A DNA stretch of 64,000 nt from positions 17,918,001-17,982,000 of the forward strand of contig OZ024756.1 in the NCBI GenBank assembly GCA_964016885.1, in the 5' to 3' direction. Source of the stretch: Eledone cirrhosa (taxonomy: Eukaryota). Under the pieces are notes generated by a model. It had not been told where the DNA came from. It saw nothing but the letters and a program-made list of their open reading frames with translations, and ran no database searches. Position numbers and translations under genes: made by a program. Positions 10,701 through 63,600 of this stretch are shown one piece after another; within the stretch, counting starts at the first letter, position 1, and each line of letters starts with the position of its first letter.

Positions 10701-13700
10701 CTTCCACACTAGCATGGGTTAGACGGGTTATCCTGTTGTGGGCAGCGTCCAGTCGCCTGACCATGCCTTGCTCATACGGGAACTAATTTTGGCTTGATTT
10801 CTACAGCTGGATGCCCTTCCTAACACCAACCTCATTTACAGTGAGTGCTGGGTGCTTTTTTTCCGTGGCCCCTACACGTCCACTTTACAGTGTGGGCTGG
10901 GTGCTTTTTTTGCCGTGGCACCTCCACAGCCAGTGGAATGATAGGGACCCCAGTCCTATCATCTCATTTCTACAGCTGAATAAACTGGAGCAAATAAAGT
11001 GTCTTGCTCAAGGAAACAACATATCACCTGGTCTGAGAATTGAACTCACAACTTTTGATTGCAAGCCCAATGCTCTAACCACTAAGCCATGCACCTTCAG
11101 AAATATTTCTGAAGACGGCGGGTAGGGAAGACGTATGTATACTTTCTTACTTTGATAATTTGTAATATATTTTACATAGATCACTATTAGAATGAACATA
11201 CAGAGAACTACCCCCCAGAAACAATTGTAAAATAACGAGTTTACTATGAATTACCCGTATTTTGTTTAATTTCATTGTTTTCACTATTTGTATTATATAT
11301 ATATATATATATATATATATATATATATAGAGAGAGAGAGAGAGAGAGAGAGAGAGAGAGAGAGAGAGAGAGGGAGAAAGGTAGAGAGATGTGTGTACAT
11401 ATTTATGTATATGTGTGTATGTATATATATATATATATATATATATATACCCATCCATCCATGTAACTGCCAATCTATATACATGATTATTTGTAAAAAA
11501 AGAAAAACCCCGCTCCCTGTCACATTTCTAGTGCGCCCTTGTATAAAGAAATTTATCTATTTCATCTGTATGAATTTATTCATCTATCTATCTATCTATT
11601 GGTTTATCTTTCTGTCTCATCCATCTATCTACCTATTGGTTTATCTTTCTGTCTCATCTATCTATCTATCTATTTGCCTGTCTATTTATTTATCTATCTA
11701 TCTATCACAGTCCTCTGGCAAGCGGGCGCAGCAATCAGTGGAGACTCCACTTCGACATTCTATAGAGGGATTGTATGTTACAAGGGCGACGGCGTGCTCG
11801 GAGAGACTCTGGGCGTCGAAGATGATGAGCTCACCAGTCTGTTTGGTAGGACTTTCCGCCCGGGACCTATGGACAACTTCCAGGAGCTCTACCGGTTTGT
11901 GACAAGATCTACAGGCACAGACGCCCCGGCAGGGATCCTTCCAAGAGGACGTGTCCAAGATGTGCGCAGGACATTGAAACAGTCCTGCACGCAATTGTAC
12001 ACTGCCCGGGTGTAACAGACCTGTGGAACTATGCAGAACAACTGCTGTCGCGTATGGGACAAATCCAGTTGACTCCCGAGTCCATAGTAAGGATCAAACC
12101 GCCAGCCTCTTTCAAAAACGAAAGAGAGGCGGTTTTCCTCTGTACGGTGGCTATGGTGAAAGAAGTTATATGGTGGACGAGGTTGAGAGGACTGAGGACA
12201 GATGCCTTTCTCTCCGGACAACAATTGATTCCCTTCTTTAAGTATCACTTTAGAAGGAGAATCAGAGTTGAGAGAGAGGCACTGCACCCCAGTAAATTTA
12301 CTGAATGGTGGGTGAATGAAGCGAAAATGGCCCGAGTGATTGGGCCTTCTCTGTTTATAAGCCTGTAGGTTGAAGAGGAGAGCAAAAGGAAGAAAGGAGC
12401 ACTTGCACAACAAACTTATGGTGGACGAGGTTAAAAGGACTGAGGGCAAACTCCTTTCTCTCCGGATGACTTATCCCCTTCTTTAAGTACCACTTCAGAA
12501 GGAAGATGAGAGTGGAGAGAGAGGTGCTACACCCCAGTAGATTCGCTGAAAGGTGGGGTGAATGTGGCGAAAATGCCCCAAGTGAATGGGTCTTCTCTAT
12601 ATATAAACCTGTAGGTTGTGGAAGACAAACAGGGAAGACGGGAACACCTACAAAACGTGTTTCTGGTGTTGAGGGTTGTTTTATCCACGGGGTGTAAAAC
12701 AACCCCGCAGTAACGTTCCCCCTTATTGGGGATTTCAATTGTTATTTTATTTTTATAGTTTATTGTTATTTATTAATGTTAAAGTTATATGAATTTTATG
12801 TAAAACCCCTGCCGTCACGTCTTGTAATGTCCCATTTTTGTACGCCCCTGTGGCAAATAAAGAAAGATATCTATTTATCTGTCTATCCATCTATCTATCT
12901 ATCTGTCTTTCCCTCTATCTTATTTATCTCCCCATCTATCCCTCTATTTATCTATCTGTTTATTTACCTGTCTATATATTTATCCATCTATCTATCTATT
13001 CCAGAAATGCCAACTGGGCAAAACGCTGCGACTTTCTCCATTTCCACTTCAGCCAAATTTGGTGATTCTGCCAAGTTTTTTTGCAATGCCTCTACTAGTA
13101 GCGAGCAGATAATAGCTTCCTTCCGACAGGATAAAATAGTTAAAGCTATAGCTACTGTGCGGGCTCCAGGAGTTACCGTTGGAGAAACTAGTCCAAACAC
13201 CACTGTGGCAGGTTCAGGAACAAACTTATACTATTCATACACCATTCATTCCTTGTCCTGCTCTAATCGAGGGAACTACTGGTGTGGAGTATCAACTGTC
13301 TCAGATGGAAATCCAAAAAGTAACATCCTCAAACTCAATGTACTTGGTAAATAATTTAACTTTACCTATCTATTTGTCTGTTTATCAGTCTCCCTATCTC
13401 TCTCTCTATCTATACATTGGTCTTTCTTTCTCTTTCTCTATCTATCCATCTGACTATATTTCTGTCTGTCTGTCTATCCATCCATCTATTTATCTCTCTG
13501 TCCATCTGTCTGTCTATCCATCTGTCTGTCAGTCTATCTATCTCTATTTATCTATGGACATCTTCCAGAGGTCCCTGGCCTGGCAGTGTTACTGAGGAGC
13601 TCTACCAGTTCATGACAAGATCTACAGGCATGGACGCCCTGGCAGAGATCCTTCCAAGAGGACATGTCCAAGATGCGGGCAGGACATTGAAACTGTCCTG

Positions 13701-60600: not shown

Positions 60601-63600
60601 ACGACTCGTCTCACTGACCGAGCTGCAGTCCTGGGTCAAGCAAAGACCGAGGAAAATGGGCGACTGGCACATCGAATGTGCTCAGGCGCTCACAGCCCTC
60701 TGGCAGGCGGACCCGGCGATCAGTGGAGACTCCACTTCGTCATTCTACAGAGGGTTGATCCACAGCAAGTGTGACGACGCGCTCGGTGAAACTCTAGGCG
60801 TGGAGGAAGATGAACTGGCCAGTCTGTTCGGTAGGACCTTCCGCCCGGGACCGATGGACAACTTCCAAAAGTCCCTGGCCTGGCAGTGCTACCGAGCAGC
60901 TCTACCAGTTCGAGACAAGCTCTACAGACATGGGCGCCCGGGCAGGGACCCTGCAAAAAAGATCTGTCCGAGGTGCGTGCGAGACGAAGAAACCGTCGCG
61001 CACGCATTCATACAGTGCCCGGGCGTCACTGACCTGTGGGGCTATGTAGAATGACTATTGTCGCGAGTGGGACCAATCCGGTTGACCACCGAGTCCATTG
61101 TCATGATCAAACCGCCACCCTCCTTCAAAAACGAAGGAGAGGCGATTTTCCTTTGTGTGATAGCTATGGCGAAAGAGGTTGTATGGTGGACAAGGTTGAA
61201 AGGGCTGAGGTCAGACACCTTTCTCTCCGGCCAACAACTGATTCTTTTTTTCAAATACCACTTTGGAAGAAGAATCAGGATGGTGAGAGAGGTGCTGTAC
61301 CCCAGCAAGTTTTATAAAAGGTGGGTGAAAGTTGCGAGAATGGCCCGAGTGAATGGGCCTTCTCTCTATATCAGCCTGTAGGTTGAGGAGGAGGAGAGGA
61401 AAGGAGTACAAACTCTTTGTACTCCTGGAGATGAGGGTTGCACATTTTTTCGGGGGTATGTGTTACCCATATAAACTGTCTCCCCCTATAGGGGAAAATC
61501 GACTAACTTTTTAAATTGCATTTGTGATAACATTTTACACGTTTTTTATTGTATGTAAACTTCCCCCTTTGTATTTGTCCCCTTCTTTTGTGCCCCTGTG
61601 GCTAATAAAGAAACTTATCTATCTATCTGTCTTTCCCTCTATCTTATTTATCTCTCCATCTATCCCTCTATTTATCTATCTGTTTATTTACCTGTCTATA
61701 TATTTATCCATCTATCTATCTATTACAGAAATGCCAACTGGGAAAAGCGCTGTGACTCTCTCCATTTCCACTTCAGCCAAAGTTGGTGATTCTGCCAAGT
61801 TTTTTTGCAATGCCTCAACTAATAGCAATCAGATATTAGCTACCTTCATGCAGGATAAAATAGATAAAGGTATAGCTACTGTGCGGGCTCCAAATGGTTC
61901 CGTTGGAGAAACTAGTCCAAACACCACTGTGGCAGGTTCAGGAACAAACTTATACTATTCATACACCATTCATTCCTTGTCCTGCTCTAATCGAGGGAAC
62001 TACTGGTGTGGAGTATCAACTGTCTCAGATGGAAATCCACGAAGTAACATCCGCAAACTCAATGTACTTGGTAAATAATTTAACTTTACCTATCTATTTG
62101 TCTGTCTATAAGTCTCCCTATCTCTCTCTCTATCTATTCATTGGTCTGTCTTTCTCTCTCTCTATCTATACATCTGTCTGTCTATCCATCTGTCTATATT
62201 TCTGTCTGTCTGTCTATCCATCCATCTATTTATCTCTCTGTCCATCTGTCTGTCTATCCATCTGTCTGTCAGTCTATCTATCTCTATTTATCTATGGACA
62301 ACTTCCAGAGGTCCCTGGCCTGTCAGTGTTACTGAGGAGCTCTACCATTTCATGACAAGATCTACAGGCATGGATGCCCTGGCAGAGATCCTTCCAAGAG
62401 GACATGTCCAAGATGCGGGCAGGACATTGAAATTGTCCTGCACACAATTGTACACTGCCCGGGCGTAACAGACCTGTGGAACTATGCAGAACAACTGCTG
62501 TCACATATGGGACAAATCCAGTTGACTGCCGAGTCCATAGTAAGGATCAAACTGCCAACCTCTTTCAAAAATGAATGAGAGGTGGTTTTCCTCTGTATAG
62601 GGGCTATGGTGAAAGAGGTTATATGGTGGACGAGATTGAGAGGACTGAGGACAGATGCCTTTCTCTCTGGACAGCAACTCATTCCCTTCTTTAGGTACCA
62701 CTTTAGAAAGAGAATCAGAGTGGAGAGAGAGGCACTACACCCCAGTAAATTTACTGAATGGTGGGTGAATGTGGTAAAAATAGCCCGAGTGATTGGGCCT
62801 TCTCTGTATATAAACCTGTAGGTTGAAGAAGAAAGCAAAAGGAGGAAAGGAGCACTTGCACAACACGCTCCTGAAGTTGAGGGTTGTTCTATCGACGGGG
62901 TATTAAACAACCCATTTGTGGCGCCTCCCCCCTATTGGGGATTTTGATTGTTAAATTTGTCTTTCAATATTTTTACACGATTGTATGTAAAATCCCCGGC
63001 ATGTGTCCTTGTTCTGTCCCCTTTTCTTGTGCGCCCTTGTGGCTAATAAAGAAATATATCTATCTCTATTTATCTCTCCATCAGTCTATCAGTCCATCTG
63101 TCTCTCCCTCCCTGTTTGTCTCTATCCATCTGTCTCTCTGTCTATCTCTCTGTCTGTCTGTCTCTTCTGTTTATCTGTCTATTTGTCATCATCATCATCA
63201 TCGTTATTCAAAATGTTTATTGGACAGACAGTTGTGACCCACAACATCTGTCCACATTCATTAAAGGTAGGATGCTTTACGGATATTATTTGATTGATTT
63301 CATTGTTGAAGACTAAAATTTAAGAAATTGAGAGATAAAAAAATATGATCTACAATGATAAATATTTCCTCAGGAAATTATTTACAATTTTTACATTTGT
63401 GACTGTAATTCTAATGAACTATATTGCATTTCCATTATTCAATGAAATATTTTGAAGCATTTATTGAAATTATTGATTATTTCATTACTAAAATAGTTAA
63501 TTAATGCATGATTCTTATATAAAATTATATTGGAATATTTTAATTTAAATAGGGACTCTTTAAAACATGTTTTGTTTCATAGAACCAGTGCCAGTTCTGG

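Follow-up and report, generated by a model that had tools for sequence, protein, structure and literature searches.

Accelerated replacement divergence on one predicted face of the N-terminal V-like domain in a tandem pair of receptor-like genes from Eledone cirrhosa

The window analysed here, 64,000 nucleotides (nt) of the octopod Eledone cirrhosa (assembly GCA_964016885.1, contig OZ024756.1, positions 17,918,001 to 17,982,000 of the forward strand), carries a tandemly duplicated gene for a predicted membrane protein of the immunoglobulin (Ig) superfamily, and the outermost, V-like Ig domain of this protein has accumulated amino acid replacements between the two copies well in excess of the non-coding divergence around them. 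It is probable that selection for change acts on the front face of this V domain. Copy 1 (gene and 3′ flank, 1570..44029) is repeated, as judged by collinear matches with 100 kb added on each side of the window, as copy 2, which begins at 45533, passes the window end at 64000 and reaches to about +90944; the unit of the duplicated block is thus ~45 kb, and both copies lie on the forward strand.

Divergence of the V-like exons

The V-like domain is encoded by exon 2, at 13005..13346 in copy 1 and 61729..62070 in copy 2. A gap-free alignment of the two exons contains 24 differences in 342 nt, distributed over 18 of the 113 codons, 17 of which change the amino acid; the one silent change is TCT/TCA at codon 29. 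These differences, the 5-nt deletion described below, and whatever is said of heterozygosity and splicing have a single assembly as their basis. The counts reproduce those of a sequence-only reading of the same DNA, and four further features which that reading had listed were recovered by the codon alignment: four codons with two or three changes, the crowding of 15 replacements into codons 5–57 of the N-terminal half, a run of 140 nt in the 3′ half that is unchanged, and the gain by copy 2 of an N-G-S glycosylation sequon at residue 55. As many as 21 of the differences fall in the first 172 nt and the identical 140 nt come later (P=0.03 at 2.5% divergence). Exon 1 is likewise identical as stated (0/49 nt differ), and exon 3a shows the reported three replacement codons inside the window, rising to four over the whole exon, with no silent change. 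Taken jointly, exons 3a, 3b and 4 carry 19 replacement and 0 silent differences, and the ectodomain total is 40 replacement (N) to 3 silent (S) differences; the deficit of silent changes in these three exons may be due to conversion or to chance. The Ig domains of the two copies are 85–96% identical.

The sequence-only reading had taken the ratio of 17:1 as a strong excess of replacements. The excess stands when measured against non-coding DNA, whereas the raw ratio exaggerates it, because replacement sites outnumber silent sites by ~3:1 and codons hit more than once hide silent steps; counted per site the comparison becomes 21:3, with dN at 0.088 and dS at 0.034. Estimates of dN/dS (omega) were computed for the window pair, and a codon likelihood model of the V exon by itself gives an omega of 5.8 (P=0.02). 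As a yardstick we used the non-coding DNA shared by the copies, 556 differences over 22,294 aligned sites (2.5%), with simple repeats masked and the zones 8500–9000 and 28400–29320 dropped; for the analysis of third positions and indels wider repeat zones were dropped. Against it the comparison of exon and non-coding divergence which had been proposed as a check gives a V replacement divergence 3.1–4.0 times the non-coding rate (P<=1e-4). The corresponding omega is 4.0 with non-coding DNA as the reference (P=4e-7) and 3.6 with DNA close to the exon; a model that admits double and triple hits at fixed rates brings it, relative to non-coding DNA, to 3.1–3.5 (P<=1e-4). The 17 replacement codons compare with 4.6–7.1 expected from the non-coding rate (P=8e-6 to 1e-3). 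When neighbouring changes are merged the 24 differences reduce to 16 events, and the 15 replacement events among them exceed the same expectation of 4.6–7.1 (P=1e-4 to 7e-3). The V exon is also richer in replacement codons than the remaining Ig exons are (17/113 vs 17/285, P=0.004), and none of 129 half-size non-coding blocks reaches the 21 differences of the 5′ half of the V exon, a half picked post hoc. CpG decay was considered as a cause and rejected, as transversions make up 15 of the 24 differences but 39% of those in non-coding DNA (P=0.016).

Predicted fold and position of the replacements

AlphaFold2, given a 17-row alignment, folded the V domain with a predicted local distance difference test score (pLDDT) of 85.7; the fold from a single sequence reached 31. 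Strands are predicted at residues 9-14 (A), 22-29 (B), 34-41 (C), 47-52 (C′), 65-70 (D), 73-80 (E), 89-97 (F) and 104-110 (G). The model is an Ig sandwich which superimposes on Ig domains with Z values of 10-11.6 and root-mean-square deviations of 2.2-2.9 Å over 90-107 aligned residues, its neighbours LILRB, nectin-3, CEACAM7 N, T-cell receptor V and P0 being about equally close. V-like features of the Ig superfamily are present in the model, namely two sheets, the C and C′ strands and a B–F disulfide pair, Cys26/Cys93, which is conserved; there is no predicted C″ strand, Phe stands in place of the C-strand Trp, and the Pfam V-set match lies under the cut-off. A homodimer prediction for the copy-1 V domain, scored at 0.00, was uninformative.

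Mapping of the variable sites onto a predicted structure, suggested earlier as a check, places replacements at 10/41 positions of the front and at 1/31 of the back (P=0.013), the front being the outer positions of strands C, C′, F and G together with the BC, CC′, C′D and FG loops, and the faces being read from the strand predictions together with the parity of residues, which is unsure on strand G. The changed residues 36, 38 and 40 alternate on strand C beside the core residue Phe39. The proposal of positive or balancing selection on a ligand-binding face is retained in part: introns, fold model and other octopods all point to accelerated divergence on one predicted face, the term ‘ligand-binding’ is used by analogy only, and balancing selection is a mere possibility on the single haplotype analysed.

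Relatives in octopods and a bivalve

Homologues were found in Octopus vulgaris (CAI9737182-84, 86-88), O. sinensis (LOC115221682, LOC118766837, XP_036366804), O. bimaculoides (XP_014771957), Argonauta (GAB1610102) and the bivalve Solemya velum (KAL5020254), as well as in a Logan cluster; these came from a full HMMER scan and a profile, and word-index searches with single exons matched 0/217 and 0/47 candidates. The relatives have in common the order V-C2-I-transmembrane (TM)-tail and tandem copies with diverged V domains, and by tail motifs and domain order the window gene belongs to a mollusc-wide V-C2-I-TM receptor family. The tail is the conserved part, with 79–82% identity to Octopus, 60% to Argonauta and 43% to Solemya, against ~50% for the V domain. 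O. vulgaris has six models with consecutive accessions besides the full-tail CAI9737188; one model has the conserved tail, and the six neighbouring models identified are without it.

The same domain and the same face vary most in these species. Among 12 distinct V domains of O. vulgaris and O. sinensis the mean distance is 21%, compared with 8% for C2 and 11.5% for I domains (identical domains, and columns with <80% residues, were excluded), and the variable V positions number 24/38 on the front and 4/31 on the back (P=2e-5). Sites that differ between the window copies tend to be variable there too (13/16 vs 39/94, P=0.003), and the full-tail orthologues of O. sinensis and O. vulgaris differ at 10/106 V positions against 5/359 elsewhere (P=3e-4). 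The two window copies group in a clade of their own (99/100; similar branch lengths, 0.10 and 0.12), so its duplication was separate from the O. vulgaris/O. sinensis expansion. Outgroup polarisation assigns four V changes to each copy and leaves nine ambiguous, several of the assignments having the support of a single sequence. In addition, two V domains of O. sinensis and O. vulgaris (P0005 and P0028) are nearly identical (clade 100/100), and at least one V type is therefore common to both species.

Tails and the state of copy 2

In exon 8 of copy 2 a 5-nt deletion shifts the frame and cuts the tail short, leaving only the first 34 tail residues as counted from a Pro-rich motif. The new stop sits 4 nt above the last exon junction and, under the 50-nt rule, a stop that near the last junction escapes nonsense-mediated decay. 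From leader to TM segment the frame of copy 2 is open, every splice site is kept and 1,456 nt are free of disruptions, where 4.7 would be expected had the copy been dead since duplication (P ~0.01, an optimistic value in that the test uses the non-coding indel rate, which is probably above that of exons). Judged from these features, copy 2 has probably not been dead for long. The pair has a structure like that of a receptor and its decoy, with similar ectodomains and one copy lacking the putative signalling tail. It does not have that of paired inhibitory and activating receptors, in which a member with an inhibitory (ITIM) or switch (ITSM) tyrosine-based motif of immunoreceptors is accompanied by one with an activation motif (ITAM) or a charged TM residue; charged TM residues were seen in neither copy.

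Two short motifs were observed in the tails. The Pro-rich sequence P-x-x-x-P-R just inside the membrane (26732-26753) is invariant from Solemya to octopods and matches the ligand pattern of the CIN85/CD2AP SH3 domains. The frameshifted tail of copy 2 ends in T-Y-V, a match to the PDZ-binding pattern of class I, so a new partner, and not simply the loss of partners, is conceivable for the short tail.

Proposed mechanism and competing explanations

The explanation that we favour as a whole, to which we give about an even chance, is pathogen-driven diversifying selection in which copy 1 is a full-tail receptor and copy 2 a tail-truncated decoy. The front face of the outermost Ig domain would have been repeatedly selected to change in octopods, with a microbial or parasite adhesin binding to it; copy 1, having kept the conserved tail, would be the likely signalling receptor, and copy 2, a membrane-bound variant minus most of the tail, would act as a decoy or modulator. 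The fold and the face are predicted and ligand binding is proposed by analogy, and we infer expression of both copies, a foreign origin of the ligand and a split of the two copies into receptor and decoy. A similar vertebrate pattern and the O. vulgaris arrangement with one full tail are counted as support for this split.

A number of results weigh against the favoured explanation. Within the V exon itself the Nei-Gojobori comparison of 21 N to 3 S differences on ~250 and ~90 sites gives P=0.07-0.11, and P=0.33-0.41 if all multi-hit codons took the most silent path. Five pairs of adjacent differences and a cluster of five in 7 nt suggest multinucleotide events in the exon, and such events inflate selection tests of this kind, as is argued in the relevant part of 10.1101/165969. 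Non-coding divergence is overdispersed, so that 2/65 blocks of 342 nt reach 24 differences and 3/65 reach 16 events; of the two top blocks one is at the 28-bp satellite and one beside a TA microsatellite. The other three Ig exons gained replacements at a rate equal to that of the introns (omega 1.0-1.9, non-significant), without clear acceleration and without purifying selection. Seven of the 17 changes are off the front: the low-confidence N-terminus and the core-parity positions hold three each, and the back holds one. The FG loop, which varies at 6/6 positions in O. vulgaris and O. sinensis, is identical between the window copies. The P values drawn from the relatives are optimistic, as related sequences are not independent, and the O. 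vulgaris gene models are automatic, some being evidently fused. Homology between the copies extends no further than ~130 nt above the ATG, and copy 2 may be promoter-less. Finally, matches to ITIM, ITSM or YxxPhi were found in neither copy nor in four octopod tails, and any signalling by copy 1 must therefore differ from the CEACAM1 kind; an ITIM is present in the homologue P0030 and an ITSM in Solemya P0031, both having been lost in octopods.

Of the competing explanations, the one that survives best, though we regard it as unlikely, is that the partner is self and the V domain a like-with-like identity tag (in allorecognition, skin or sucker self-recognition, or gamete or neuronal matching) whose paralogues were driven apart. 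It fits the same selection statistics, and the structural neighbours of the V domain include nectin-3, myelin P0, CEACAM N domains, TIGIT and CD200; several of these neighbours use the same face for pairing. A precedent is offered by Hydractinia Alr1/2, whose variable N-terminal Ig domain is described, in the portion of the source drawn on here, as binding homophilically and allele-specifically (10.1101/2022.03.25.485889). Such a role is harder to reconcile with the Logan-cluster homologue, which is nearly invariant (3/490 variable sites in five of six members, one of them in V, the shorter member P0039 being left out), and with the presence of only two copies at the window locus, compared with at least 10 V domains in the six O. 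vulgaris models; searches of the 3.0 Gb Eledone assembly returned no copies beyond these two, a count which is a lower bound. A broader possibility, also on the unlikely side, is that the locus is a histocompatibility-like complex of octopods, or one of variable immune receptors, the first in cephalopods, in which V front faces would encode self or pathogen specificity; as part of it, a single-copy molluscan ITIM receptor would have lost its ITIM and expanded independently in several octopod lineages into full-tail and tail-less paralogues.

A rather improbable alternative takes the two V exons for ancient balanced alleles that unequal crossing-over brought side by side, or for a conversion patchwork in which the 3′ half was recently homogenised. 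The sharp split of the exon into a divergent and an identical part, the clustering of changes, the scarcity of silent changes over the ectodomain and the repeats which flank the exon would all be accounted for, and in Hydractinia alr2-like pseudogenes adjoin alr2, according to the part of that literature used here; by analogy, copy 2 may be a donor of sequence, as the alr2 pseudogenes are thought to be. However, an old tract should hold silent changes, and the third positions of the divergent half give no sign of age, only 1/41 differing (P=0.03 were that half 12% diverged); 4-fold sites in that half, taken alone, are uninformative (1/23 differ, P=0.21). The DNA flanking the V exons is only 2.6-2.8% diverged, a third paralogue as donor was rejected because searches of the animal’s own genome gave two copies only (again a lower bound), and selection on the front face would still be required.

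We also consider it improbable that copy 2 is a promoter-less, decaying duplicate whose excess of replacements reflects relaxed constraint on surface loops together with a few multinucleotide mutations. The homology that ends ~130 nt above the ATG, the frameshift, the in-frame deletion of 15 nt in the stalk, the omega of ~1 for exons 3a and 4 and the several copy-2 changes at residues fixed in relatives are in keeping with decay. Relaxation, however, caps omega at 1 and the V exon remains at 3.1–3.5 with multiple hits allowed; moreover, changes are found on both copies, the leader-to-TM stretch is undisrupted and the same face diverges in O. vulgaris and O. sinensis. Lastly, a single assembly of a very heterozygous animal could in principle have set two haplotypes of one gene in tandem, 2.5% then being allelic, but this is very improbable given the lack of an N gap between or within the copies, the unique 1.5 kb junction, the partial 5′ end and the differing multi-kb insertions, and the V-exon excess would then be allelic and would still need explaining.

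Organisation of the genes and the locus

Each copy is predicted, from splice signals and homology, to have ten coding exons, all with AG/GT boundaries and on the forward strand, encoding 562 amino acids in copy 1 and 513 in copy 2 in the order V-C2-C2-I-stalk-TM-tail. In copy 1, exon 1 (1701..1749) supplies the ATG and a hydrophobic leader, from which a signal peptide is inferred, and its GT donor splices in frame to exon 2, the V-like domain (weak Pfam ig/V-set matches; Ig fold Z 11). This is followed by exon 3a (15232..15537), a C2-like domain recognised by a weak Ig_2 match (E=0.03) and alignment to octopod relatives; exon 3b (16716..17003), a second C2-like domain and internal duplicate of 3a; exon 4 (18453..18722), an I-set domain (Pfam Ig_3, E=1.7e-10); exon 5 (21110..21199), the Thr/Pro-rich stalk, which in copy 2 is shorter by the 15 nt mentioned above; and exon 6 (23793..23903), the TM helix with a basic stop-transfer sequence. 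Three exons form the tail: the 22-nt exon 7 (26732..26753), bounded by AG/GT, required by the frame and matching the tail of relatives; exon 8 (28197..28284), whose counterpart in copy 2 (L004:1545-1627) is the one lacking 5 nt; and exon 9 (29322..29444), with the tail end and stop. Copy 2 has exon 1 at 45637..45685, exon 2 as given above and exon 3a at 63783..64000, ending at +64088 past the window, with exons 3b-9 beyond it in L003 and L004. With no exons besides those for Ig domains, stalk, TM and tail, and without a fibrinogen or lectin domain, the gene is predicted to encode a type I membrane protein.

The C2 exon was duplicated together with its upstream intron (15232-17003); the duplicates are 5.8-6.8% diverged and predate the gene duplication. 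Relatives have a single C2 domain, and the O. bimaculoides model instead has the I-set domain doubled.

The copies are separated by a junction (44025..45532) of internally duplicated, repeat-like DNA which stands before copy 2 in place of the upstream region of copy 1. No N gaps occur between or inside the copies in the region with 100 kb added on each side, where the sole gap is at +110080. A YY1/initiator-like stretch lies at 1315-1340, ~370 nt above the ATG of copy 1, has no counterpart before copy 2, and may mark the transcription start of copy 1. Among the multi-kb insertions that distinguish the copies is a GC-richer one (50-53%) of 4.2 kb, at 57459-61615 in intron 1 of copy 2, ~110 nt above the V exon, which copy 1 lacks. 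A repeat family of 0.5-0.9 kb units, 77-97% identical, has several members to either side of each V exon (11705-12898, 13552-14200, 54153-54806, 56968-57458, 60690-61500 and 62292-63080) and could promote unequal exchange. The 28-bp satellite in intron 1 occupies ~1 kb in copy 1 (9238-10248) and 0.37 kb in copy 2 (52319-52685).

Relation to known systems

The phenomenon is of a known kind; the family is apparently undescribed. It does not appear to be a member of the CEACAM or Alr families and may resemble them, by analogy, in working only. Octopod models carry the automatic labels ‘CEACAM5-like’ and ‘CADM2-like’, the former of which was rejected as evidence of family membership; CEA is one of many generic Ig matches. 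From these models the window gene differs by its duplicated C2 exon. CEACAM N domains lack the B–F cysteine pair, whereas the window V domain keeps Cys26/Cys93, aligns structurally to them with 9-13% identity only, and belongs to copies without an ITIM/ITAM pair. As far as the accounts used here extend, the two have in common a fast N-terminal IgV-like front face and tandem paralogues with differing tails, while conversion keeps CEACAM decoys alike and the window copies diverge. In Xenopus CEACAMs, replacements on the CC′C″FG face, a conserved back sheet, few silent changes, decoys and tandem paralogues with differing tails are described in the part of PMC5112662 consulted.

Hydractinia Alr1/Alr2, on what is covered by the same partial sources, are comparable in that these invertebrate proteins span the membrane, their N-terminal Ig domain is variable, near-copies lie in tandem beside the gene and some relatives have Tyr-motif tails, but they are known by homophilic allele-specific binding, polymorphism and linkage to fusion and rejection, whereas the window pair is the sequence of one haplotype. 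The V-C2-I ectodomain and C-terminal valine recall adhesion molecules of the Nectin/CADM, Fasciclin-3 and MUC18 types, which appear among ESM Atlas feature neighbours and fold neighbours and are usually conserved. Molluscan Ig-superfamily (IgSF) proteins with immune roles, as listed in the sections used of PMC11999971 and PMC11841013, include FREPs, MDM, CgIgIT2 and oyster NCAM1; the window protein has another architecture, without a fibrinogen or FN3 domain, and differs from FREP/VIgL proteins, which are secreted with a C-terminal fibrinogen or lectin domain. Literature listings and the opening parts of abstracts yielded no description or function of the family, which supplementary gene-family tables might nevertheless list; by term counts, octopus, cephalopod and squid go unmentioned in the invertebrate IgSF review PMC11999971, as do immunoglobulin, IgSF, CEACAM and nectin in the main text of the cephalopod genome paper PMC9068888.

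Among animals a fast-evolving front face of an IgV domain is a common signature, and the surprise of the present case is limited accordingly. Cephalopod immune and self-recognition receptors are nevertheless poorly known, and a locus whose variable face is defined, which has expanded repeatedly in separate lineages and in which full and short tails are split, is a direct target for their study. If the pair is a decoy system, it would be a convergent invertebrate parallel to the CEACAMs; if the V domain is instead a self tag, octopus self-recognition would become testable at the level of the gene.

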